From NCBI GenBank assembly GCA_963800585.1, contig CAWDBP010000007.1:371770-435769 (forward strand): DNA of 64,000 bases. The letters are read 5' to 3'. Positions 33,240 to 64,000 of this stretch are shown piece after piece (within the stretch, counting starts at the first letter, position 1; each line of letters opens with the position of its first letter). The DNA comes from an uncultured Bacteroidales bacterium. GTDB taxonomy: Bacteria > Bacteroidota > Bacteroidia > Bacteroidales > FEN-979. The position numbers were made by a program, and so were the translations under genes. Below the pieces are notes generated by a model. It saw nothing but the letters and a program-made list of their open reading frames with translations. It did not search any database and was not told the origin of the DNA.

Positions 33240-34230
33240 AAATGACAAGGTTTTAAATAAAATAGCCATAAGCGAAGGATTGGAAGATGTGAAAAGTGTT
33301 TCACAGGATTCTACCGTTGTAAAAACAAATATTCATTATCCTACGAATAACTCCCTTGTCTGGGATTGTATAAAAACGAGCACCCGGTTATTGGAGCAAT
33401 TGAAACAAGAGATTGATACACTTGATTTTATTGATTACACGAAATCCGCAAAGAAGACCTTTTATGAAATCAATGTTAATCGCAAAAATAAGGATCGGTA
33501 TGATTTATTTTGTAAGCAGTTGATCCTTTTTACCAAAGTAATCAATCAAACGTCCAACGCGATAAAAAAAAAGTCCACGAGTATTATCGCCTGGGGCATT
33601 CAGGAAGAACTGACTAAATTGCTGAGCCTGATGGTACAGGTATATAATGTAGCCTATCGCAAGGAAATTAATGGGGAAAAAGTCCCCAGTGAAGAAAAAC
33701 TGTTTTCGATTTATGAACAACACACCGACATCATTGTGAAAGGGCAAAGGGAAGTGCTGTTTGGCCATAAAGTAAACCTGGCTGCAGGAAAGAGCAATCT
33801 TGTCCTGGATTGTCAGGTTTTGCAGGGCAACCCGGCGGACAAATCATTGTATAAACAAACCATTGACAGGGTTATTCAAAATTATGAGATCGTTCCGCGG
33901 GACAGTGCTACCGATGGAGGATATGCCTGTTTGGCAAACCTTGAGCATGCCCAGAAAGCGGGCGTTGTAAATATTGTGTTTAATAAGGTTGTTGGCAGTA
34001 TGCAGAATATTGTCAGCAGTTTGAACATGGAAACACGTTTGAAGAGATGGCGCAGCGCCATGGAGGCAATAATCTCGAATATTAAGCGTGGCTTCAATAT
34101 CCGTACTTGTAGTTGGAAGGGCTGGATTCACTTCCAGGCTAAAGTTCTTTGGAGTGTTTTGGCATATAACTTCAGGGTGATGACCGCCTTAATTCTTGAC
34201 CGGCTTAAATCTGATCCTCTGGTCAGCTGA
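33240..34230 (+). mobile_element. 5'-truncated IS4/IS5-superfamily DDE transposase remnant
   Basis: DDE triad context is present: DSTVVKTNIHYPTN (D1), SATDGGYA (D2) and RWRSAMEAIISNIKR (R-x3-E-x6-K, E). The N-terminal DNA-binding part is absent. The reading frame stays open upstream into the 3' end of the preceding gene, with no ATG. No inverted repeats were identified. Confidence 0.75.
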
Positions 34231-52658: not shown

Positions 52659-54528
52659 ATGCCCTCATTATTACAAGTTGAAAATTTATCCCGCTCCTAT
52701 GGGGAAAAAGTTCTTTTCCAGGATATCTCCTTTGTTATAAACCAGTACCAGAAAGTTGCCCTGATCGCCAGGAACGGAGCTGGTAAAACCACTCTTTTAA
52801 ATATTATTGCAGGTTTGGAGCCTTCCGATGGAGGTACGGTCAAATTTTTTAATGATGTTTCCATCGGCTACCTGAAGCAGGATCCTGAATTGAATGAATT
52901 TAACACTGTTTTTGATGAAGTTTATGAGTCGTCCAATGAGATTCACAGGACAATCCGGGATTACGGGAAAGCCATCCTTGGGGACGACAAAAAAGAGATC
53001 CAGAAAGTTATTGAGCGAATGGATGCTGTTGAAGGGTGGGAATATGAAACGCGGGTGAAGCAGATCCTTTCAGAATTAAAGATCACGGATCTTGAACAAA
53101 AAGTAGAGAAACTCTCCGGTGGACAGCGAAAAAGAATTGCCCTGGCAAAGACATTGATTACAGAACCTTCTTTTCTTATCCTGGATGAACCTACAAACCA
53201 TCTTGATATAAATATGATCGAATGGCTGGAAGACTACCTGACCCGTTCGCGCATTACCCTATTCATGATCACACACGACCGCTACTTCCTGGATCATGTA
53301 TGCGAAGAGATACTGGAATTGGATAATGCCTCCCTCTTTCGTTATAAAGGTAATTACTCATATTTCGTGGAGAAGCAGGCAGAGCGGAAAGAGAATCAAT
53401 CGAAAGAAATTGAAAAAGCCCGCAACCTGCTGCGAAAAGAGCAGGAATGGATGATCAGGATGCCCAAAGCGAGGACCACCAAATCAAAGGCACGTATCGA
53501 GAGTTATTATGACCTAAAATCAATTGCCGGCAGTAAGATCAGGGAGGAAAAAATCAATATGGATATTGGTACCGGCAGGATAGGGAAAAAGATACTTGAG
53601 ATGCGGCAGGTTTCTTTTAGTTGGAGCGAGGCAGCCTATCCTGCAGGATTTCTTTTATACCTTCAAGCGGAATGAGAAAATAGGCTTTGTGGGAAACAAT
53701 GGTTCGGGAAAATCAACCTTCCTTGAGATCATAACCGGTCAACTCCGGCCTTCATGTGGAAGGATAGAAAAGGGAGAAACGATAACCTTCGGGTACTATA
53801 AGCAGGAAGGAATCACTTTTAACGAGGATTCCCGGGTAATAGATGTGATAAGGGATATTGCTGAGGTGGTCACCCTGAGTAATGGTGATACTGTCTCGGC
53901 GGCAGCTTTTTTAAATTACTTTCTATTCCCTTATTCCACGCATTACCAGTTGATAAGTAAGCTTAGCGGGGGAGAAAGGAGACGATTGTACCTGGTTACT
54001 GTCTTAATGCGAAATCCAAACTTTCTCATCCTTGATGAACCTACAAATGACCTTGATATTTTTACCTTGGCAATTTTAGAGGAATATCTTTCTTCCTTCA
54101 AAGGATGTGTGATCATTGTGACCCACGACCGTTATTTTCTTGATGAGATCGTTGATCACCTGTTTGTATTCAAGGGAGAGGCCGTGATTAAAGATTTTCC
54201 TGGAAACTACAGCCAATACAATGCTTATCGTATACGTAGGGAAAGGGAAGAGAACAGATTGTTGCAGGCATCCCGGCAGAAAACAGAAAAGCCACAAATC
54301 GTAACCATACAATCCAATAAATTGTCCTTTAAAGAAAAAAGAGAATTAGAGTCTTTGGAAACGGAGCTTGCACGATTGGAAGAAGAGAAAACAAAAATCG
54401 AAATCACGCTGTCGTCCGGAATAATTTCCCAGGAAGAACTCTCAATGAAATCCGAACGATTTGCTTTAATTCTGAAAGAGATTGAAATAAAATCCGACCG
54501 CTGGCTGGAACTCAGTGAAAAAGGATAG
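52659..54528 (+). pseudogene. ABC-F family ATPase (two ABC domains) split by a frameshift near 53610-53630
   Basis: ORF1 (52659-53675) carries Walker A ARNGAGKTT, signature LSGGQRKR and Walker B ILDEPTNHLD. ORF2 (53596-54528) carries GNNGSGKST, LSGGERRR and ILDEPTNDLD. The two ORFs overlap by 80 nt in different frames, whereas ABC-F proteins are normally one ~620-aa chain. Confidence 0.8.
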
Positions 54529-54640
54529 ACTATCTCATATATGTTTGAAATTGATATTTTATGAATCGTTTCACCACTTCCTGAAATTGAAATGACTTAC
54601 TGTTCGATCTGAAGGAGGTAATTGTTGATCAAAGAAACGA

Positions 54641-54774
54641 TGTCCCTGGGACATTTGATGTAACAGTTATTGCTACATTCAGTGATCCGGAACAGATCTT
54701 TTGGAGAGGTGGAGTACAACAAGATTTAATACTGGTTGTACGTTACATCAAAAATTGGGGAATCCCAGGGCATC
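54641..54774 (+). other. ~134-nt imperfect palindromic / nested-stem element (candidate structured RNA or MITE-like repeat)
   Basis: P1 pairs 54641-54652 with 54764-54774 (11 bp, one bulge). P2 pairs TTTGATGTAAC (54655-54665) with GTTACATCAAA (54743-54753), 11 bp perfect. P3 pairs GTACAAC (54715-54721) with GTTGTAC (54736-54742). CTGTCTCTTTTTGG follows. Confidence 0.5.
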
Positions 54775-55029
54775 TGTCTCTTTTTGGTACTTTTAGATAT
54801 TTTTTGTTACTGTTAAAGTTTGATATTATTTTCTTTTGATTTTACGAAGGTCATTCCATCGTTGGATTCTGAAATGCAAACAATATGCCAATTGGACATA
54901 TGGAATATGCAATTAACTTCCTTATTAATTCATTTGGTTAAAAATCAAATTATTATAAAAAGTATTTTTTGTAATAATTTTTAAAAAACTTTAAAAGAAG
55001 TATCCGGAATCTGATTTTTAATAGCAATA

Positions 55030-55047
55030 TTCGCACAGGTGTGCGAA
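55030..55047 (-). terminator. Perfect 18-bp palindrome abutting the stop of the sigma-54 activator gene (weak terminator or operator)
   Basis: TTCGCACA GG TGTGCGAA lies 2 nt from the stop codon at 55049-55051. No T-tract follows on the minus strand, so terminator function is doubtful. Confidence 0.3.
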
Positions 55048-55048
55048 A

Positions 55049-56431
55049 TCAATCCTCTTTTTTGATCCTGATATTATGTTTTTTCATTCTGCGGATGAGA
55101 GAATCTCTTGTTATTCCCAAGGCCTCTGCGGCTGCTTTTTGGTTATAGGAATAATCCCTTAAAGCCTGCCTGAGCAATCGTTCCTCGAATTCCTTCATGT
55201 TCAGTCTTTCAATTTTATCGCTTGCCGGAGACACGAGGTTTGGTTTCAAGGTGAAATCCTTGATCGTCAGAAAATTCCCCTTTGAAAGAATAACTGCTCT
55301 TTCCGTCAGATTTTTTAATTCTCTAACATTTCCGGGAAAGGAATATTTTTTCAATCCTTCAACGACGTTTTTTTCTATTTTCAGTTGAGGTTTGTTCATC
55401 CTGATTGAGAATTCTCTAACAAAATGGACCAGTAAAGGTTCAATATCTGCAGGCCTTTCCCGCAGAGGCGGTATATGAATGTGCAGGGTGTTTAAACGAT
55501 GGATGAGATCCAACCGGAATTTCTTTTCACTTACAAGTTTGTCAACATCGTGGTTTGTTGCGGCAATTACCCGGAAGTTCACTTTAATTTCTTCTGTCTC
55601 GCCTACACGGGTAATTTTTTTTTCTTCAATAGCCCGGAGTATTTTAGCCTGAAGGCTAAACGGCATATCCGCGATCTCATCAAGGAAAAGCGTTCCTTGG
55701 TCTGATACCTCGAAAAAGCCCTTTCTATCGGTGATGGCTCCAGTGAAGGATCCCTTTTTATGGCCGAAGAACTCACTCTCAAGCAACGATTCCGTTATAG
55801 CACTGCTGTTCACAGCACAAAAAAGGTTGTCCTTCCGTTTGCTGGAATAGTGGATAATCCTGGCAATATTCTCTTTTCCGGTACCGCTTTCTCCTGTGAT
55901 CAGGACATTCGTATCGGGAAATTCCGAAGCAGTAAGTGCCAGTCCCAGTACTTCCTGGATCTTTTGGCTTCCCCCAATGAAATCCCGTTCAATCTTTTCT
56001 CCAAGTGCTTTTGAGATCAGGGAGTTTTTCTCCTCCATTACCTGTAATTTCCTTTTAAGGGCGAGAAATTTTTGAGTTCTTTCCATGGCGATTTGGAAAT
56101 CCAAATGCCTGAAAGGTTTACGAAGGTAATCTGTGGCTCCCAGTCGTAAGGCCCTGATCACGGATTCCATATCCCCATGTGCTGAAACAATAATGACCTC
56201 CAGTGTTGGATAGATTGTCTTTAACTCCTTCAGAAGATCCAACCCGTTTGTTCCGGGAAGACGTATATCCAGGATTAGTAAGTCAATCTCATGGCATTTC
56301 AGAATATTCATTCCTTGCCGTGCAGTATTTGCAATGTATACCTTATGTCCTTTCTTCTGAAGCATTTCATTCATTTCTTCAGTAAAACTCCGTTCGTCAT
56401 CAATTACAAGGACTGTTATTTTAGGTTCCAT
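55049..56431 (-). CDS. Sigma-54-dependent response regulator (REC - AAA+ - HTH, NtrC family)
   Basis: 460 aa. The receiver has DDE...DLLILDIRLPG...RKPF. The AAA+ module has GESGTGKE, GSFTGA (a GAFTGA-loop variant), ESEFFGH and LFLDEI. The C-terminal Fis-type HTH is AAEALGITRDSLIRRMKKH. Confidence 0.93.
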   Translation of the reverse strand: MEPKITVLVIDDERSFTEEMNEMLQKKGHKVYIANTARQGMNILKCHEIDLLILDIRLPGTNGLDLLKELKTIYPTLEVIIVSAHGDMESVIRALRLGATDYLRKPFRHLDFQIAMERTQKFLALKRKLQVMEEKNSLISKALGEKIERDFIGGSQKIQEVLGLALTASEFPDTNVLITGESGTGKENIARIIHYSSKRKDNLFCAVNSSAITESLLESEFFGHKKGSFTGAITDRKGFFEVSDQGTLFLDEIADMPFSLQAKILRAIEEKKITRVGETEEIKVNFRVIAATNHDVDKLVSEKKFRLDLIHRLNTLHIHIPPLRERPADIEPLLVHFVREFSIRMNKPQLKIEKNVVEGLKKYSFPGNVRELKNLTERAVILSKGNFLTIKDFTLKPNLVSPASDKIERLNMKEFEERLLRQALRDYSYNQKAAAEALGITRDSLIRRMKKHNIRIKKED

Positions 56432-56477
56432 CTAACAGGATTATTTGTAAACTAATAAATTCTATTTTGGTTTATTT

Positions 56478-58586
56478 CTATGTCTTTTCAACTTGTTTCT
56501 TTTTATCTTTTTTTATCGGGATTCTGATCCTGATCATTGTACCAACAAACCTTTCACTTTGGATCTCAATAGTCCCATGCATGTCGCTAATTATGCTAAA
56601 TGAAATAGAAAGACCGAGGCCCGTACCAACGCCTTCTTTTTTTGTCGTATAAAATGGCAACATGACTTTATCGATGTCATTTGGATCTATCCCTATACCG
56701 TTGTCCTTAACTTCCACACAAACAGATTGATCCACCCGGTGTGAAGATATTTCCAGTATCTTGTTAAAATCCTGTTTCAGAACATTCTGCTTTTCTTCAA
56801 TTGCATCTTTGGCATTGATAATGAGGTTTACCATGACCTGCTCAAATTTGTAAGTGTTTCCAATAGGACGTGGAAGATTTCCATCAAGGTTTATGACAAA
56901 GTGAATCCCTTTATGCTTAAATTGTTCAGATATCATGGATTTTGCATTCCGGATACTTTCATTAATATTGAACCTCGTTTGGATATATTCATCATGGTCT
57001 TTTGAAAATGCCCTAACATGGTCAATAATGTTTCGTATCCGCGTAATGTTATCGAAGATCTTCGAGGTTTTATTTTCAACGTATACTTTATCCTGAGAGT
57101 CGCCATTAAGATGGAGCATCAGGTTATCCATTGTGAGTGAAATAGTGTTCAGTGGTTGATTTATCTCATGCGCCATACCTGCGGCCATGACGCCAATTCC
57201 CGCCATTCTTTCTGTATGTATCAATTGTTTATCCATTCTTTTTCGTTCAGAAATATCACGGATGACTACAAGATATCCTTTAGTCTCCTTCAAGCCTTTT
57301 TTCAAAAGGCTGATGTTCACCTCACCGACGAAAGTGGTATTGTCATTTCTTATCAGGGTAAGCTCGATGGTATGGGTGATCCCTTTTTTAACTTTATCGG
57401 AAAAATATACCCTTTTTTGTTTACGAAGTTCAGCTGGAATAAGTTCCACAAACATTCTTCCAATGAATTCTTCCTGTGAAGGAGCTTTGAATATTTCAAG
57501 GATGATATTAGAAACTTCAGTAATTCTCCCCTGTGGGTTAATTATCATAATACCTTCCTTCGTTGCATCCAGCAAAATGCGATGGATCTCTTCTGATTCG
57601 ATCAGTTCCTCTTCAACACTTTTCCGATGAAAGGAACTTGAAAAAAGTTTTGAAAGGGTGATAAGAAGGTTGAATTCTTCGAGGGTCCAGCGCCCTGGAT
57701 TTTCAATGTTATCAAGTCCAAGGCATCCGATTACACCCTCATCGTCCATAATTGGAAGGATCATAAGTGACCGTATTCCGAAATTTTGAAGCAGCGATCT
57801 GTACTTCTCCAAATCATCCGGAAGATTATGTGTGTCAGGAATTAAAAGGTCCCGTTTTACCTCGAGTTCCTCGAAAAACCAATCATACAGGAAATGAACA
57901 TTGTCATTCTGTTCATACAATGCAGAATTTTCACCCTGGCAACTCCATTCATAAGTCGGGCCAATTTCTTTACTTGTCTTATTCTTAATCAATATAAAAA
58001 CGGTTCGGGCTTTGGAGTAATTACATATTTCTTTAATCGAATCGAGAATAGCCTGATCAAAATCAGCAATTCCGATAAGACGTGCGGAAATTGTTGAAAC
58101 AATTTTTTCGATCAGAAGCTTCCGCTGAAGATTGTTCTCCGCCACTTTGCGGTCAGTAATATCACGAACAATCGCGGTATAGAATTTTCCTTCTTTTGTT
58201 GAAAATCCTCCAAAAGAAATTTCCAAAGGAATAATTTTACCATACTTATGATACCCCTCTGCTTCTATTCTCTTCTTCTCTTTAATAACTGTACTATTCA
58301 GAATATTGTTGATAGTGTTCTTGGGATTTTGATCATCCTTTGAATTGATCAGGAAAGTTATAGGTTTACCAATGATCTCATGGGTTCTATACCCGAATAT
58401 AGTTTCAAATTCCGGGTTGAGATAGAAAATTTTTCCTTCTTCATCAATGCTGATAATTGCATCTGTAGCAGATTCTGCAAAAATCTGAAACCGCTTCTCG
58501 CTAAGATGTAACGCTTCTGAGGTGCGTTTCCTTTCCACGATTTGCCGTATCAGCAACAGGAAACGGTTCAAATCAAGGGGTTTCAT
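56478..58586 (-). CDS. PAS-GAF-PAS sensor histidine kinase (NtrB-like H-box)
   Basis: 702 aa with PAS modules ending VRDITDRK and IRDISERK and a central GAF-like region. The H-box is GMAHEINQPL. HATPase motifs are DNGIGI and GTGLGLSIS. Its first residues MKPLD complete the upstream receiver (see findings). Confidence 0.88.
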   Translation of the reverse strand: MKPLDLNRFLLLIRQIVERKRTSEALHLSEKRFQIFAESATDAIISIDEEGKIFYLNPEFETIFGYRTHEIIGKPITFLINSKDDQNPKNTINNILNSTVIKEKKRIEAEGYHKYGKIIPLEISFGGFSTKEGKFYTAIVRDITDRKVAENNLQRKLLIEKIVSTISARLIGIADFDQAILDSIKEICNYSKARTVFILIKNKTSKEIGPTYEWSCQGENSALYEQNDNVHFLYDWFFEELEVKRDLLIPDTHNLPDDLEKYRSLLQNFGIRSLMILPIMDDEGVIGCLGLDNIENPGRWTLEEFNLLITLSKLFSSSFHRKSVEEELIESEEIHRILLDATKEGIMIINPQGRITEVSNIILEIFKAPSQEEFIGRMFVELIPAELRKQKRVYFSDKVKKGITHTIELTLIRNDNTTFVGEVNISLLKKGLKETKGYLVVIRDISERKRMDKQLIHTERMAGIGVMAAGMAHEINQPLNTISLTMDNLMLHLNGDSQDKVYVENKTSKIFDNITRIRNIIDHVRAFSKDHDEYIQTRFNINESIRNAKSMISEQFKHKGIHFVINLDGNLPRPIGNTYKFEQVMVNLIINAKDAIEEKQNVLKQDFNKILEISSHRVDQSVCVEVKDNGIGIDPNDIDKVMLPFYTTKKEGVGTGLGLSISFSIISDMHGTIEIQSERFVGTMIRIRIPIKKDKKKQVEKT

Positions 58587-58897
58587 TTCAAATGAAACGA
58601 TCTTTTTTTCTTGACTGCCTCTATTGCAATTTCCATCGTTCCATATCCCGTGATGATGATGAACTCCATATCTGGGATCATGCCAGATAATTCTTCAACC
58701 AGTTCCAGTCCATTAGCATCCGGCAATTTTATATCGATAAGCGCGAGTCCAAATGATCTTTCATTGCAAATCCTGATAGCTGTTTCCCGATCCTGAGCGA
58801 TGGCCGTGCCAAATCCATTTTCTTTCAGGATGTCTTCCAGTGAAAGTGTTAATTCAACGCTATCATCAATGATGAGTATATCGAAATTTTCTTTCAT
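58583..58897 (-). CDS. Receiver domain ORF lacking the C-terminal Lys-Pro segment
   Basis: 104 aa with DD at residues 11-12, the phospho-acceptor context LALIDIKLPD, and IIITGYG. It ends EAVKKKRSFHLK* after an A7 run and overlaps the kinase start via ATGA. Confidence 0.8.
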   Translation of the reverse strand: MKENFDILIIDDSVELTLSLEDILKENGFGTAIAQDRETAIRICNERSFGLALIDIKLPDANGLELVEELSGMIPDMEFIIITGYGTMEIAIEAVKKKRSFHLK

Positions 58898-58908
58898 TCC
58901 GTAATTAG

Positions 58909-59670
58909 TTAATGCGGGTTCTCAAATATTTTTTCCCTTTTGAGGTTTTCGATCTGTTCCAATAATGAAAGCAGAGTATCAATATTTATTGGCTTCTCAA
59001 GAAGAGCATATGCGCCGGCTTTCCTTGTCATTTCGACCATTTTTTCAATCTCAGCCAGGAATCCTGTTATAATGACAACCACAATGCCCGGGCAAAGACG
59101 GCGGATTTCCAGGTACACCTCGAGTCCGTTCAACGGTGGAAGTTTCATGTCCAGAAGCATAATGTCAAAAGCAAATGTTCTCACTTTTTCAATCGCTGAT
59201 GTACTATCCAGGGCGATTGATACACGGTACCCTTTTTGGATGAGAATATCTTTAAGATTTTGGCATAAATTCTCATTGTTGTCAGCAACAAGTATCATTG
59301 ATCCATTAGGAATGGCTTGTTCAATAGTAATGAACAATTCATCGAAATCCAATGGTTTTTTCAGACAAGCAAATGCACCTTCTTGTAAGGATTCCTGTAT
59401 GAGTTCCTCCAGGGCATAGGCCGTTAGCATGATGACTGGTACTTCCGGATTAATAGATTTGATTTTTTTAAAGGTCTCTACACCATTCATGACAGGCATT
59501 TTGATGTCCATCAGAATGAGATCGACGGTAGATGTTTTAATTATTTCCAGGGCCTCGAATCCATCGTTAGCTATCCGCACTTTATATCCTTTTAATTCAA
59601 GGATATCACTGACATTTTGTGTAAATTCCTTATTGTCATCTGTTAAAAGAATGGTAGGTTTCTTTTTCAT
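58909..59670 (-). CDS. Stand-alone double receiver (REC-REC) protein
   Basis: 253 aa with two complete receivers: ILLTDDN...LILMDIKMPVMNG...MLTAY...KKPLD and ILVADNN...IMLLDMKLPPLNG...IITGF...EKPIN. There is no output domain. Confidence 0.88.
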   Translation of the reverse strand: MKKKPTILLTDDNKEFTQNVSDILELKGYKVRIANDGFEALEIIKTSTVDLILMDIKMPVMNGVETFKKIKSINPEVPVIMLTAYALEELIQESLQEGAFACLKKPLDFDELFITIEQAIPNGSMILVADNNENLCQNLKDILIQKGYRVSIALDSTSAIEKVRTFAFDIMLLDMKLPPLNGLEVYLEIRRLCPGIVVVIITGFLAEIEKMVEMTRKAGAYALLEKPINIDTLLSLLEQIENLKREKIFENPH

Positions 59671-61367
59671 ATTTTTTCTTCTGATGGTTCTTTTAATTCT
59701 TCCCTGACGAGCGGCATCCTGATGGTGAATTTAGCTCCCATTCCCGGTTCTGCCTGCACAAATATTTTTCCTCCATGGTTTTCAATGATCATTTTTGTAA
59801 TCGACAGGCCGAGACCAATTCCTTTTGCCTTGGTTGTGAATAATGGCAGGAATACCTGATTTAAATGATCAGGATCAATCCCGACTCCAGTGTCTGAAAA
59901 TGATATTTCGACTTCGGCATTTTCTGTTTTACGAATTATTATTGTCAAGGTTCCAATTCCATTCATGGCAGCCACGGCATTCTTCACCAAATTATCAATA
60001 GCCATCCTGAACTGTTCTTTCTCAGCTCTAATGTGAAACACTGTTTCCGGAAAATCTTTCACAATCTTTACTTTATCAGGTATAATACAAGTTTCAAGGC
60101 AGTTGGCAAGGAGGTCAGTTACATCGTAGCGTGTGAGTACAGGTTTGTTCATCCGGGTCAGGCTCAGAAGGTTATCGATGATGATGGTTGCACTTTTCAC
60201 ACTTAAGCTGATCCGTTCAAGATGTTGTTGAACCTTCTCATCTTTTTCGTTCAGACGCAGCTGAAGATAATAGATAGAACTATCAATAACTCCCAATGGA
60301 TTTCGAAGTTCGTGGGAGATATTTCCCGAAAATTGGCCGAGAATAGCAAGACGTTCCTTACGTATTAATTCCTCCTGTGCTGCTTTCAATTTTCTTGAGG
60401 TTTCGTTCATATCCTCAATCATATAAAGCATTGCAAGCTGACTTCTGTTCAATTCGTTTATTTTTTCCTCATGATCTCTGGTCCTCTCTGCCACTTTGAC
60501 CTCCAGATCATTTTTTATACGGTGGAGCTCCTCATTAGTTTTGTTCAGTTCAAGTGTACGTTCCTTTACTTTTTTCTCCAGGTCCTCATACATTCCTTCC
60601 AACTCACTGGCCATTGCATTGAAATTAGTAGCAACCTGCGTCAGCTCATCCTGACCTTTGATTTCGAGTAACTGTTTGAAATTTCCTTTTGCCATTTTGG
60701 TTGTTACATTGTTGATCGACTTTAATCGCCGGGTGATGGATAATGACAAATAAAAGGTAATAAGGAGGCTTATCATCATGCTCAATATGATTGTGATAAA
60801 CCCGATGAGTTTGGCATTGGTTGCTACCCTGACTGAATTTTCAGTAAAAGATATTGCCTTGTTTGTTGCATAATCTCCAAGCTGATCTAATTCAAACTGA
60901 AGAATACGGACATGTGAATCACCTTCGGTAAGGTTTACGGTTTTTGCTTGTTTATCTTTTCCATTTTTTGCAAGAGAGATTGTTTTTTCACGGATTGGTC
61001 TCCATTGATAAAAAGTGATCCTGGCTTTCAGGGCAAGTGCTTTTCCTTTGTTACCAAGAATTTGTCTCTGTATCAAAGAGAATAAACCCGACACCTGATT
61101 GTCTTTTTGTCTTATGTCTCTCATGAGATTGATCAATTCAGTCGAATCATGCGAATATGAAATTCCATACAAGTCACGCTGAATTGATAAAACCAGAACC
61201 TCTATATCCTGAGATGCACGGGATACAACCATAGGATGTGCAAGAGTTCGTCCCAGCGAATCAACCACGAGTTGTAGGTTATGTATTCCTTCCAGGTACA
61301 TCACGATGAATAGAAGAATAATGAAAAGAAATCCACTTAGTAACTTTTGTCGTATCCCGAATTTCAT
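59667..61367 (-). CDS. Membrane HAMP-domain sensor histidine kinase
   Basis: 566 aa with TM1, a ~170-aa extracytoplasmic helical region, TM2, HAMP and a coiled coil. The H-box is NISHELRNPL. HATPase motifs are DTGVGI and GIGLGLSI. Confidence 0.9.
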   Translation of the reverse strand: MKFGIRQKLLSGFLFIILLFIVMYLEGIHNLQLVVDSLGRTLAHPMVVSRASQDIEVLVLSIQRDLYGISYSHDSTELINLMRDIRQKDNQVSGLFSLIQRQILGNKGKALALKARITFYQWRPIREKTISLAKNGKDKQAKTVNLTEGDSHVRILQFELDQLGDYATNKAISFTENSVRVATNAKLIGFITIILSMMISLLITFYLSLSITRRLKSINNVTTKMAKGNFKQLLEIKGQDELTQVATNFNAMASELEGMYEDLEKKVKERTLELNKTNEELHRIKNDLEVKVAERTRDHEEKINELNRSQLAMLYMIEDMNETSRKLKAAQEELIRKERLAILGQFSGNISHELRNPLGVIDSSIYYLQLRLNEKDEKVQQHLERISLSVKSATIIIDNLLSLTRMNKPVLTRYDVTDLLANCLETCIIPDKVKIVKDFPETVFHIRAEKEQFRMAIDNLVKNAVAAMNGIGTLTIIIRKTENAEVEISFSDTGVGIDPDHLNQVFLPLFTTKAKGIGLGLSITKMIIENHGGKIFVQAEPGMGAKFTIRMPLVREELKEPSEEKI

Positions 61368-63502
61368 TTGTTCATCTTTTCAAGTTGTAATTCCAGTTCT
61401 TCAATTCGGGTTCGCATTTCTTTCATTCGCAATTCCCTGTCGATAGTTGCCTTATAAAACCGTTCCAGTTCCTTGACCCGTTCCTGTAATTCTTTTGTTT
61501 TTTGCTCAACCTTATGTTCCAGGATGACATTCATCTCCTTTACTTCATTTTCCATTTTCTTGCGTTCAGTAATATCCCTGACTATTCCCCAGAAACCATT
61601 GGCATTTCCTTCCTTATCTTTATGAAGGAATAACCGAACTTCGACCGGGAACCGGGTGCTATCCTTTCTGCAATATTCTATCTCAAAAACTTCAGAATAA
61701 CCCCGGCTCATCACCTGGGTTTCTATTATTCCGTCAACTTTCTCATACCATTCTTCCGGAACAATTCTTCTTATGGATTTCATGTTGTTAATATCATTCT
61801 GAGAATAACCTGTCATGGTAAGAAAGAAAGAGTTGTTCTCGATTATCCTTTTGTTCATATCCATAAGGACAAAACCATCCCGGATGCTTTCATAAAGTAA
61901 TCGATATTTGCGTTCAGATTCCCTTAATTCTTTTCCAGAAGCAACCGATTTCGTGATATCCACTGCCATCAGGATGATACCATGAATCTTATCTTCTTTA
62001 TTCAGCAATGGGGCAGTGTAGATTTCCAAGTCAAGTTCTTTCCCCAGGATTGATTTGTAATGAATTTCCCCGGCATTGATTCTTTCAGCACTAAGAAGAC
62101 GGGAGATCTCAATCTCGCTTAACACAGATTTGATCTGAGGTACTTCCTGGAAAAATTTTCCAACAACAAATGATTCTGTCTCTTCCGGAGTCCCCATCAT
62201 TAGTTTCATTGCAGGATTTTCATAGGTTATCAATCCTGTCTGATCCAGGAAAAGAATACCTACCGGGGCTGACTCCACCAACCCGTGGTTAAACATTTCT
62301 GAAATAATAAGCGATTCCTGGGTTTTCTTTTGATCGGTAATATCGAAATTGATACCAGTCAAACGAAGGGGAGTTCCTGCTGAGTTCCTTACAACCTGGG
62401 CATATGCTTTGATAAAATGAATGCTGGTGTCTTTATAGACAACCCTGTATTCGCTATTGTATTCTTTTTCACCGTTGAGCGCCTGATTGATTTCTTCCAT
62501 GCACCTGGCAACATCTTCCGGATGCAAAAGTTTAAGCCAGTCATCGAGATTACCTGCGAACGCTTCCTGTTCTATTCCATAAAGTTCAAACATTTTATCA
62601 TCCCATAAAAGCTTATTGGCTTTTATATCCCACTCCCACACTCCCATTTCACCGGAACGTGTAGCCAGGTTAAACCTGTCAATCAATTGTTCAAGTTCCA
62701 GTTCTGCATTTTTCCGTTCTGTGATATCACGTACCACAACCCACATTCCATCAGGGTTACCTTTTTCATCCCGAATCAGGGAAATCCGTATTTCAACAGG
62801 GAAAACAGTTCCGTCCTGTTTTCGGCATTCCTTTTCAAAAACGTCTGAATAGCCATTAGGAACAACCTGATTATTAATAATCCTTTTTTCATACTCATGC
62901 CAATGATGAGGGGTGATATCTAAATAATTTAAATTAAGCAATTCTTCATCCTTGTAACCCAGCATCGAGCGGAAGTAAGAATTAAATTCCCTGATGTTTC
63001 CATCCATATCTAAGCGTACGAATCCATCCATCAGGCTTTCATACAACCGACGATATTTTGTTCCCGTTGATCGAAGTTCTTCACTTGCACGTCTGCTGCC
63101 TGTAAGATCAAGGAATAGAGTTGCAAACCAATTTTCTTTTGGAATAAATACGGAGATCTCAAAATAACGGTCCAGCAGTTGAAAATAGGTCGTAAAAAAA
63201 TAGGGATCTCCTGTTTTTAAAACGTGCTCGTATATATCAATATATGGAGGAGGGGTCACTCCGTATAATACACTTGCAAGTGCACCTTTGGCTTTATCTG
63301 AAGGAATTCCCAGATTCTTTTCGAAGGAAGGATTAACATCCCGGATGATATAATCAACAGCTTTTCCTTTTTCATCATAAATCATCTGGTGAATAGCAAC
63401 ACCCTCCGTCATAGTGGCGAACAGGGAGTGGAAATTAAATTCATTTTCCATGATATCCTCTCCTTCAGATCCAGCATTCTTTGGATTGTTCCGTTCTGTC
63501 AT
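61364..63502 (-). CDS. Five-PAS soluble sensor protein with C-terminal coiled coil and no transmitter
   Basis: 712 aa with five PAS-like modules; modules 2 and 5 are internal paralogues, both ending VRDITERK. The C-terminus KELQERVKELERFYKATIDRELRMKEMRTRIEELELQLEKMNK is coiled coil. No HisKA/HATPase or other output motif is visible. Confidence 0.85.
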   Translation of the reverse strand: MTERNNPKNAGSEGEDIMENEFNFHSLFATMTEGVAIHQMIYDEKGKAVDYIIRDVNPSFEKNLGIPSDKAKGALASVLYGVTPPPYIDIYEHVLKTGDPYFFTTYFQLLDRYFEISVFIPKENWFATLFLDLTGSRRASEELRSTGTKYRRLYESLMDGFVRLDMDGNIREFNSYFRSMLGYKDEELLNLNYLDITPHHWHEYEKRIINNQVVPNGYSDVFEKECRKQDGTVFPVEIRISLIRDEKGNPDGMWVVVRDITERKNAELELEQLIDRFNLATRSGEMGVWEWDIKANKLLWDDKMFELYGIEQEAFAGNLDDWLKLLHPEDVARCMEEINQALNGEKEYNSEYRVVYKDTSIHFIKAYAQVVRNSAGTPLRLTGINFDITDQKKTQESLIISEMFNHGLVESAPVGILFLDQTGLITYENPAMKLMMGTPEETESFVVGKFFQEVPQIKSVLSEIEISRLLSAERINAGEIHYKSILGKELDLEIYTAPLLNKEDKIHGIILMAVDITKSVASGKELRESERKYRLLYESIRDGFVLMDMNKRIIENNSFFLTMTGYSQNDINNMKSIRRIVPEEWYEKVDGIIETQVMSRGYSEVFEIEYCRKDSTRFPVEVRLFLHKDKEGNANGFWGIVRDITERKKMENEVKEMNVILEHKVEQKTKELQERVKELERFYKATIDRELRMKEMRTRIEELELQLEKMNK

Positions 63503-63716
63503 TATCGGATGTTCATCTTGTTAATTTGTCCCTTCGATTTCTTGTCTTTCCTAACACAGTGCTTAATGAGTTATATTTTTTTCAAACACTTATCAGTTGC
63601 TTGCTACGTAAAACACAGGGAGAATCTCAAATAAATTGAAATTACCCTTCCTGAAAGTATAAAAATTTAAAAAATCCAATATTACAGACCGTTTTTTTAA
63701 AGATTATTTGATTATC

Positions 63717-63730
63717 TCTGATGCATCAGA
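63717..63730. promoter_or_regulatory. Perfect 14-bp palindrome upstream of the signalling operon
   Basis: TCTGATGCATCAGA lies 215 nt upstream of the ATG at 63502. It is a candidate operator or enhancer-binding site, but no supporting second copy occurs in the window. Confidence 0.3.
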
Positions 63731-63789
63731 AAAGGCGAAGAATTAAATTACTTATGTTTGTTTTTCTATCCCGAAAATAGTAAGTTAAA

Positions 63790-64000
63790 AGTAGAAGTTT
63801 ATATCCACAATTCAAATAGCGGGAATCCATATATTTTTATTACGGGAAACCGCTATACAACTCATGCCTATAAAAAGTAATCATATTGTTAATCAATGCG
63901 AAAGAAAAATAATATGGCGTGCATTTTGCACGCCACGATTTTTCATTCTACCCGGATTTCTCTTCATTCTCCTCTTTTTTTTATAAATTTACTTCTTCTT
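63790..64000 (-). repeat. ~190-bp intergenic element, copy B (inverted relative to copy A at 5100-5290; runs off the window end)
   Basis: The reverse complement carries GAAATCCGGG (63951-63960), hairpin TGGCGTGC/GCACGCCA (63915-63935), ATTGATTAACAAT (63885-63897), ATAGCGGTTTCCC (63844-63856) and ATGGATTCCCGC (63819-63830). Order and spacing match copy A. Confidence 0.6.

Follow-up and report, generated by a model that had tools for sequence, protein, structure and literature searches.

Several sensors converge on one NtrC-type activator in the LuxN/LuxQ/CqsS-LuxU-LuxO system of Vibrio and in the ShkA-ShpA-TacA system of Caulobacter. In Myxococcus xanthus, the RedCDEF "four-component" system combines two kinase-type proteins, a dual-receiver protein and a further receiver, with phosphotransfer that involves no Hpt protein (PMC2755868). 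Within sensor proteins, the joint between a sensor and the output domain downstream of it can be an S-helix, a coiled coil some 40 residues long that bears an ERT signature at its centre (Anantharaman, Balaji and Aravind 2006, PMC1592074). PorP/SprF-cargo pairs of type IX secretion and sigma-54 control of cell-surface functions have also been described (PMC3162934, PMC9143113). Here we analyse a signalling operon that lies on the minus strand, at positions 55049-63502, of a 64-kb stretch of DNA (hereafter, the window). A scan for the activator of this operon in species-representative genomes and metagenomes places the window among uncultured Bacteroidales.

The operon is real and conserved, and its five sensor and signalling genes channel several signals into one sigma-54 activator. 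From the sequence comparisons reported below, we lean with modest confidence towards a model in which a classical pair, formed by the kinase HK2 and the activator, acts on an adjacent module composed of an upstream activating sequence (UAS) and a promoter, and is gated by an accessory layer formed by a PAS-tail protein, a second kinase (HK1) and further receivers. Two leads go beyond the ordinary, namely the fixed-geometry UAS-promoter module with its structured RNA, and the terminal tail of the PAS protein.

Operon organization and conservation

A first-pass annotation, made from the sequence alone, had listed six open reading frames (ORFs) at this locus. All six coordinates were correct when the ORFs were re-read from the sequence (6/6). 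The ORFs had been interpreted as six genes of one co-directional signalling unit. The unit stands, as its order is kept in relatives, but it is made of five genes: PASx5-tail, 4HB-HAMP kinase (HK1), REC-REC, REC-PAS-GAF-PAS kinase (HK2) and NtrC-type activator. Their features are as follows.

61364..63502, minus strand: gene 1, soluble 712-aa sensor with five PAS modules and a C-terminal helical tail, transmitter-less (Pfam, AlphaFold2, orthologues)
61367..61570, minus strand: C-terminal tail module of gene 1, residues 645-712 (AlphaFold2 helix, conservation, phmmer)
59667..61367, minus strand: gene 2 (HK1), 566 aa, with transmembrane (TM) segment, periplasmic 4HB_MCP, second TM segment, HAMP, two tandem S-helix segments, HisKA and HATPase
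58909..59670, minus strand: gene 3, 253-aa REC-REC protein (Pfam, active-site residues)
56478..58897, minus strand: gene 4 (HK2), REC-PAS-GAF-PAS-HisKA-HATPase, 806 aa when intact (Pfam, intact relatives)
58603..58609, minus strand: frameshift site in gene 4, A7 homopolymer (A8 in near-identical assemblies and close relatives)
55049..56431, minus strand: gene 5, NtrC-type sigma-54 activator, REC-AAA+-HTH_8, 460 aa (Pfam)

The ATGA overlaps at 61364-61367 and 59667-59670, as well as the gaps of 11 nt (58898-58908) and 46 nt (56432-56477), can be read from the sequence as described, but the "-4 nt" junction at 58583-58586 belongs to a frameshift inside one gene and separates no genes. The 4-nt ATGA overlap between the stop of gene 1 and the start of HK1 is also present in L167, L168 and L169 (related loci are numbered with L). 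A Pfam search of all six products confirmed the earlier domain calls and the resulting tally of four receivers, two transmitters and eight PAS/GAF modules leading to one DNA-binding output. We also agree that the domain families are individually ordinary.

The two-TM HAMP kinase was recovered as 4HB_MCP-HAMP-HisKA-HATPase, with hydrophobic segments at about residues 8-30 and 185-210. HK1 and HK2 each contain both HisKA and HATPase_c, with H-boxes SHELRNPL (HK1) and AHEINQPL (HK2). Gene 3 consists of receivers only, as had been proposed, with Response_reg found twice (E 4e-51). The REC-AAA+(sigma-54)-HTH_8 assignment of gene 5 was likewise upheld by PF00158 Sigma54_activat (E 2e-61), PF00072 Response_reg (E 1e-27) and PF02954 HTH_8 (E 3e-10). 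Its motifs are Walker A GESGTGKE at 180, a GSFTGA loop at 227 (a one-residue variant of GAFTGA), Walker B LFLDEI at 248 and PLRER at 322. By its AAA+ motifs, N-terminal receiver and Fis-type HTH, its predicted product is a bacterial enhancer-binding protein (bEBP) of the NtrC family. The gene rpoN was not found in the 64-kb window. All four receivers (4/4) retain the equivalents of CheY D57, T/S87 and K109 (D57, S87 and K109 in gene 5) and seem phosphorylatable. The two receivers of REC-REC are 27-34% identical to that of the activator.

The first-pass annotation had suggested a multi-step phosphorelay. In the strict sense of His-Asp-His-Asp transfer this is not borne out, since a Spo0B-like domain is present in no product, and the six ORFs contain neither Hpt nor any other histidine-phosphotransfer family (Pfam, E<=0.01). 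Lacking Hpt, the system is not a classical His-Asp-His-Asp phosphorelay but a multi-kinase network, in which one kinase would regulate the other.

Comparison of neighbourhoods found the same gene order and chromosomal slot in L167-L170, L035 and L084. The PAS protein is 60-75% identical in L167, L168, L169 and L170, and 47% in L035 and L084, which carry the full gene order as well. The operon is conserved in at least six lineages. On one side of the slot lies a 5'-nucleotidase gene, on the other a convergent ABC-F gene. At about 100 other loci, a short PAS-HisKA-HATPase kinase, equivalent to HK2 residues ~320-692, directly precedes an activator with 59-68% identity to that of the window. More than 100 loci keep the transmitter half of HK2 paired with the activator. 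Because about 100 loci carry that pair alone, the HK2 transmitter and the activator would be the ancestral pair, and the rest an add-on.

The rest of the locus has been reshuffled around this pair. In L035 and L084, one receiver of REC-REC (the first) is fused to HK2 in a 1,061-aa protein, and in L167 HK2 is reduced to REC-PAS-kinase. L164, L165 and L166 have the gene 1 PAS modules joined straight onto HK2. The fusion proteins P0028 and P0032 (L164:8001-10322) join them to the HK2 transmitter, and P0037 (L166:185-2686) to GAF-PAS-transmitter. The fusion junctions fall at conserved PAS ends (VRDITERKK followed by QDKNMIHTERMAG, and RDITKRKVAE followed by INLQRKLLIEKIV). These three loci occupy the same chromosomal slot, and the HAMP kinase, REC-REC, the HK2 receiver and the tail are all absent from them. 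The intervening genes were apparently deleted by recombination between PAS-module boundaries. Natural chimeras of this kind separate the core parts from the accessory ones. The strongest argument at hand for all inputs serving the HK2-to-activator output comes from these fusions and from the losses that accompany them.

A homopolymer run splits HK2 in this assembly

The sequence had been read as a receiver ORF followed by a PAS/GAF kinase. The domains are right (REC, then PAS-GAF-PAS-HisKA-HATPase), but they belong to one 806-aa gene and not to separate ORFs. HK2 appears in the window as ORFs 58583-58897 (104 aa) and 56478-58586 (702 aa). The 104-aa REC ORF ends at position 91 of 111 of the Pfam model, with the receiver incomplete, and the 702-aa ORF opens with the missing receiver end (MKPLDLNRF...). 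With one more A in the A7 run (58603-58609), the frame reads AVKKKKIVSFEMKPLD again. Three independently assembled sequences, from two Logan runs and one JGI metagenome (L161-L163), share 99.93-99.95% identity with the window along 8-14 kb, with an identical activator, and their sole operon-wide difference from it is one extra A at this run. The intact 806-aa gene is called in L161-L163, L168, L169 and L083, and a single HK2 ORF is also found in L082, L083, L168, L169, L035 and L084. Relatives, both close and distant, have A8 or synonymous sequence and one ORF reading through AVKKKKIVSFEMKPLD; L082 and L083 have A8, with KKKIVSFEMKPLD in one frame.

A second assembly-specific frameshift lies less than 5 kb from the first. 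The ABC-F ATPase gene (52659-54528, plus strand) is split into ORFs of 338 and 310 aa by an extra C at 53634, and is intact (622 aa) in the three near-identical assemblies and in L001. As these three assemblies carry both HK2 and the ABC-F gene intact, the split is specific to this assembly and most likely an error, a real strain-specific mutation being less probable. Of the other overlapping ORF pairs in the window, 2876/4077 corresponds to separate genes (FabF and RNase III). The pair 29456/32661 was considered as a frameshifted single gene and set aside, since Pfam gave no support for a split gene. HK2 calls for caution in annotation, as its apparent stand-alone receiver is the product of a single homopolymer indel.

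A palindrome and a sigma-54 promoter-like element behind the activator gene

The following elements lie 3' of the activator gene.

55030..55047, no strand: palindrome, proposed UAS (conservation 3' of activators)
54876..54890, minus strand: sigma-54 promoter-like element TGGCAT-ATTGT-TTGC (-24/-12) (one mismatch, conserved spacing)
54616..54787, minus strand: conserved structured element, ~170 nt (nhmmer, folding, covariation counts)

The statement that no TGGCAC-N5-TTGC promoter is found near gene starts has to be revised. A sigma-54 promoter-like sequence, TGGCATATTGTTTGC, with one mismatch to TGGCAC-N5-TTGC, is located at 54890-54876 on the operon strand and is accompanied by a conserved upstream palindrome. 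The corollary that the target lies elsewhere is right only insofar as the protein-coding genes that follow this module in relatives are deleted in this strain; the putative promoter itself sits 3' of the activator gene. Both motifs are contained in the 520-nt spacer that follows the activator gene. The palindrome, TTCGCACA-CC-TGTGCGAA (CGCACA-N2-TGTGCG, 55047-55030), starts 2 nt past the activator stop codon, 155 nt from the -24 element. It is unique in the 64-kb window, where the relaxed promoter motif recurs at a single further position, 3635.

We surveyed both motifs at the 152 activator loci with enough downstream sequence. CGCAC-N4-GTGCG was present within 150 nt of the activator stop in 27/152 loci (expected ~0.003 per locus), and TGGCAY-N5-YTG within 450 nt in 41/152 (expected 0.024). 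Both occur in 14 loci, including all six closest orthologues, and their spacing is 154-159 nt in 13 of the 14 and 146 nt in the remaining one. The arms of the palindrome are conserved and its two central bases vary, which is the signature of a protein-binding site, unlike that of a terminator. We therefore propose the palindrome as a candidate activator binding site (UAS). It could in addition act as terminator hairpin of the operon.

In L168, L169, L082, L081, L164, L035 and L084 the module is repeated before each downstream transcription unit, with the 154-159 nt spacing in every copy. Module 1 of L168, L082, L081 and L164 lies upstream of a gene for a 131-167-aa stand-alone receiver. This receiver is 48% identical to the activator's receiver, while the others are 27-39% identical among themselves and to it; because of this closeness, the sigma-54-driven receiver is probably a feedback phosphate sink for HK2. 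Module 2 is followed by the conserved structured element, and then by a PorP_SprF gene and an 86-aa gene. The window, L001, L167 and L170 carry a single module, then the structured element alone, and then the convergent ABC-F gene. Judged against relatives, the receiver and PorP/SprF genes are deleted in this strain, and the putative promoter and leader remain.

Some relatives present variants of this layout. In L164 (12036-12668), the first module precedes a gene for a 210-aa REC-HTH_8 protein, like the activator minus AAA+, which could compete for the same palindrome. Three successive UAS-promoter modules are found in L035 (11404-14100) and L084 (11413-14070), the first before a second activator paralogue (66-67% identity) and the second before a receiver gene, an arrangement that may constitute an activator cascade. 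In L169 (19535-22145 and beyond), the PorP_SprF gene behind module 2 is replaced by one for a PKD-repeat protein of 4,912 aa, probably a type IX secretion cargo or an adhesin.

At 36 loci, the gene for a paralogous activator (62-69% identity) precedes gvpA by ~270 nt, and the stretch between the two holds a sigma-54 promoter-like motif. These PAS-kinase/activator loci linked to gvpA are L002, L005, L011, L013, L014, L040, L086, L092, L096, L114 and 26 more, and in the gvpA-linked L086 and L105 a tail protein and an extra kinase form additional layers. The linkage to gvpA suggests that gas vesicles are under sigma-54-dependent control in Bacteroidales of freshwater and in some Chlorobi metagenome-assembled genomes. 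Gas-vesicle genes were discarded as the target here, as the window contains no gvpA (best tblastn E 7). The regulator family is in this way tied to surface and buoyancy genes (PorP/SprF cargo pairs, giant adhesins, gas vesicles) of uncultured Bacteroidales from freshwater and peat, and the regulon can be sought genome-wide by means of the defined site, in which CGCACA-N2-TGTGCG is separated by 155 nt from a sigma-54 promoter.

The structured element

The element at 54616-54787 was found in 12 loci, once in each and invariably behind a sigma-54 module (nhmmer E 1e-32 to 1e-51); its copies include L168:19456-19630, L082:5756-5932 and L164:13567-13739. Some genomes have it as the leader of PorP_SprF genes, and in the window it is an orphan. 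Its fold is more stable than that of shuffled sequences (z -4.2). The consensus structure, whose statistics rest on eight sequences, has 42 pairs, with 86% of cells paired against ~45% when partners are slid. Double-sided changes were counted at 9 pairs, versus 3.5±1.5 in shuffles. The 3' end consists of a stem followed by UUUCUUUG. The element and its intergenic region did not match Rfam 15, the best scores being 13-20 bits against gathering scores of 40-46.

No conserved reading frame was found in the element. We nevertheless considered a small-protein gene, as L082, L001 and L164 contain ORFs of 65-92 aa. However, the window and L001 do not share the same frame, in-frame stops interrupt an otherwise error-free stretch of the window, and amino-acid identity (~44%) is lower than nucleotide identity (~70%). 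Two further readings, as the remains of a pseudogene and as an antisense RNA directed against the activator mRNA, were also rejected, since blastx and blastn-short gave matches at chance level only. The element and the promoter are kept in four lineages without downstream genes, and this suggests that the putative RNA has a function of its own, eight sequences being too few to be sure.

The C-terminal tail of gene 1

The unannotated tail of gene 1 is the most novel item of the operon. The 712-aa protein had been described as lacking any transmitter or known output domain, and this view came through Pfam and NCBIfam searches that could have overturned it. The five PAS modules are also supported. 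Modules 2-5 score above the Pfam threshold when scanned in pieces, and module 1, which is sub-threshold, has a PAS fold in the AlphaFold2 model. The paralogy of modules 2 and 5 was corroborated at 49% identity (E 7e-39). The AlphaFold2 model of gene 1 (20 orthologues) contains five PAS-like alpha/beta modules with confidence scores (pLDDT) of 70-90, and a helix over residues 645-711. Orthologues of 699-720 aa and 60-88% identity form at least 25 clusters.

The C-terminus, previously labelled a coiled coil, is indeed helical, but it is a strongly conserved and widespread terminal module and not a generic coiled coil. It forms a single continuous helix of 67 residues. Its N-terminal half is S-helix-like, with EQKT replacing ERT, and its C-terminal half carries ELERFYKATIDRELRMKEMR. 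The consensus is TERKxAExELxxLKxxLExKVxEKTKELQERVxELERFxxATIDRELRMKELRDEIxxLK. Over the last 45 residues, 20 orthologues share ~20 invariant columns (KT.EL..R...LERF..AT.DRE.R.KE.R..I..LE), a higher density than in the PAS modules.

An exhaustive phmmer search with a 72-residue query against 1.84 billion representatives (E<=0.001) matched 1,581 representative proteins, each standing for a protein cluster. The whole module is at the extreme C-terminus in 142 of the 150 best matches, with a median of 2 residues to the end, and these 142 proteins span 72-1,415 aa. Sampled tail proteins are REC-PAS-GAF, dCache-PAS and REC-PocR-PAS proteins and PAS-only arrays, none of them with a transmitter. The few internal matches involve the N-terminal half only, in PAS-to-HisKA linkers of true kinases. 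By this same half, the profile hidden Markov model of the tail matches the HK1 linker twice (E 5e-7). The C-terminal half, 25 residues reading ELERFxxATIDRELRMKELRDEI, has no counterpart in Pfam, NCBIfam or PDB. The best hit of the tail in Pfam is HEF_HK (15.6 bits, below the cutoff of 24.1), NCBIfam gave only linker regions of NarQ and NosR (E>=7e-4), and nothing in PDB fell below E 0.2.

We considered and rejected the tail as a DHp alpha-1 helix that has lost its histidine. BLAST aligned ELERFYKATIDRELR with the HK1 H-box FSGNISHELR (E 0.22), and hhalign of 116 tails with 16 PAS-DHp regions matched the TERKxAE linker only (probability 16%), leaving homology between tail and DHp unsupported. 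At the position where an H-box would have its histidine, 113 of 122 members have D, E or N, and one has H. With regard to the S-helix class, the tail has the E-K-T/E-R-T signature and no downstream domain, which places it outside the class.

At the loci examined, the next co-directional gene after a full-length tail protein encodes a histidine kinase (in L003, with one gene between). HK1 directly follows the tail-bearing PAS protein in ten operon loci (the window, L161-L163, L167-L170, L035 and L084). Three unrelated tail proteins also precede kinase genes, directly in L105 (sCache-PAS-GAF kinase) and L086 (PAS-PAS-HisKA_3 kinase), and after a MEDS-domain gene in L003. Word-indexed searches with the tail returned mostly contig-edge fragments, whose contexts lie in signalling clusters and are not decisive. 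It is tempting, though speculative, to propose that the C-terminal helix is an undescribed terminal adaptor or output domain, by which transmitter-less sensor arrays (PAS, GAF, REC, Cache, PocR) plug into the coiled-coil linker of a histidine kinase encoded next to them. The kinase genes that follow tail proteins support this hypothesis and are not proof of it. If true, it would mean split, mix-and-match sensor kinases, and it would give a role to many "PAS domain S-box proteins" without output domain. The ~1,580 clusters that end in the tail are in any case a handle on how sensors with no recognisable output domain signal.

Surroundings of the operon

One further feature was noted upstream of the operon.

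63914..63936, minus strand: GC-rich hairpin followed by a T-run (terminator scan; L161 gene map)

This hairpin ends the preceding transcription unit, which in L161 is the 5'-nucleotidase gene. It is perfect and flanked by T-runs on both strands, that is, bidirectional and terminator-like, ~410 nt upstream of the operon start. An autoregulatory site was looked for upstream of the operon, and neither the palindrome nor the sigma-54 motif is present in 63503-64000. Elsewhere in the window, at 33280-34230 on the plus strand, an ORF whose product has a DDE transposase domain (PF01609, E 2e-8) is an insertion-sequence remnant unrelated to the operon.

Proposed mechanism and alternative explanations

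In the model that we favour, the HK2 transmitter and the activator would constitute an ancestral NtrB/NtrC-like core, on which further input layers were grafted. The phosphorylated activator would bind the palindrome and, through DNA looping, activate the sigma-54 promoter. HK1 may sense a periplasmic signal through its four-helix bundle. The five-PAS cytoplasmic protein, presumably translationally coupled to HK1, would modulate this kinase, with its C-terminal helix docking on the long S-helix linker of HK1. HK1 could then phosphorylate REC-REC and/or the N-terminal receiver of HK2, and so gate the activity of HK2 toward the activator. In relatives, the promoter would drive the single-domain receiver that is the closest paralogue of the activator's receiver, as a feedback phosphate sink, and a second UAS-promoter module would drive the structured leader together with the PorP/SprF or giant adhesin gene. 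In this strain, the putative structured RNA of ~170 nt would be the sole remaining local product.

Several points weigh against this model. All of it is predicted from sequence, in which the wiring of phosphotransfer cannot be read. The palindrome scores in a terminator scan and could be just the operon's terminator hairpin; the -12 element is TTGC here and TTGG, TTGT or TTGA in several relatives, which makes promoter strength uncertain; and the local protein-coding targets are absent in this strain. The frameshift, if real, would leave HK2 without receiver input. As to the tail, its docking on HK1 rests on gene adjacency and generic S-helix similarity, and the profile-profile comparison gave no support to a degenerate DHp helix.

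The most serious alternative, which we hold to be possible but rather unlikely, is that two insulated systems are merely co-transcribed: HK2 would act with the activator, HK1 with REC-REC and a protein-protein output elsewhere, and the five-PAS protein as an independent sensor. Such insulation would suit the ordinary domain families, the presence of candidate receivers near each kinase and the low identity (27-34%) of the REC-REC receivers to the receiver of the activator. However, the core of HK2 and the activator stay constant while HK1, REC-REC, the HK2 receiver and the tail come and go as a set, and parts of the supposedly separate systems are fused to HK2, namely a REC-REC receiver in L035 and L084 and the PAS modules of gene 1, joined to the transmitter, in P0028, P0032 and P0037. 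Moreover, the receiver of HK2 itself needs a donor kinase.

It is improbable, in our opinion, that the operon is a decaying remnant in this strain, with a genuine frameshift in HK2, its sigma-54-driven genes deleted and nothing controlled locally. The A7 of the window where relatives have A8 and the second frameshift, in the neighbouring ABC-F gene, would fit decay, but both genes are intact in the three independent assemblies at 99.93-99.95% identity, so that the indels look like assembly errors, and nothing is broken in the remaining four genes of the operon. What L168, L082 and L164 have and the window lacks are the receiver, PorP/SprF and 86-aa genes; the same layout of promoter plus element with no downstream gene is nevertheless kept in L170 and in L167, whose PAS protein is 60% identical, which argues for retention. 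We give still less credit to the idea that the two motifs are not regulatory, the palindrome being a terminator only and TGGCAT-N5-TTGC a non-functional relic. The conserved arms and variable centre are the opposite of a terminator pattern, and the hairpin is followed by a poor T-tail (ATATTGCTATT). In 13/14 loci the -24 element keeps a distance of 154-159 nt, and modules are duplicated before successive transcription units, including positions with no preceding activator gene. All this has to be set against a palindrome that scores as a terminator-like hairpin right after the stop codon, and against sigma-54 consensus matches (<=2 mismatches) that are no commoner than chance over the window.

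Comparison with known systems

The tail of gene 1 resembles the S-helix in its N-terminal half, as do the two HK1 linker segments: each covers ~40 residues after a sensor domain and has an E-[RK]-T signature. Unlike an S-helix, the tail continues only into a conserved 25-residue extension and the C-terminus. Concerning possible targets, the links of relatives to PorP_SprF, to the 4,912-aa PKD protein and to gvpA fit the idea of sigma-54 controlling the cell exterior. For the operon of the window, whose target genes are absent, this link to surface genes consists of orthology of the regulator and of DNA motifs only.

Compared by shared domains, the operon is similar to RedCDEF in that two kinases and a stand-alone dual-receiver protein are co-operonic and Hpt is lacking. 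It differs in that RedE is kinase-like and has a histidine, and in that the Red system has no sigma-54 activator as output (PMC2755868). In the present operon the two kinases are complete, their transmitter-less partner consists of a PAS array without a His-bearing helix, and the output is a bEBP. No ATPase-less, His-bearing kinase-like protein is encoded, and gene 1 has no DHp, so the operon falls outside a RedCDEF-like class.

The convergence of sensors on one activator recalls LuxO and TacA, although those systems use Hpt proteins (LuxU and ShpA) and this operon encodes none. In Vibrio, the direct target of LuxO (reviewed in PMC4878744) is a qrr small-RNA gene next to the activator gene, which resembles the orphan structured RNA found here. 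In contrast to qrr, the structured element of the window has no match in Rfam and is a PorP/SprF leader in relatives.

The closest likeness of the core is to NtrBC, AtoSC and ZraSR, since the PAS-HisKA-HATPase core of HK2 and the adjacent REC-AAA+-HTH_8 activator are conserved as a pair. As in NtrB/NtrC-type systems, a palindromic, putative upstream site lies ~150 bp from a predicted -24/-12 promoter. The differences are the additional N-terminal REC-PAS-GAF of HK2, the three further signalling genes attached to the pair, the GSFTGA loop, and the position of the UAS-promoter module, which follows the activator gene on its 3' side and has its spacing fixed at 155 nt. In summary, what was an anonymous complex signalling operon can now be described by a concrete model with a defined cis-element, in which an NtrB/NtrC-like pair would stand at the centre.

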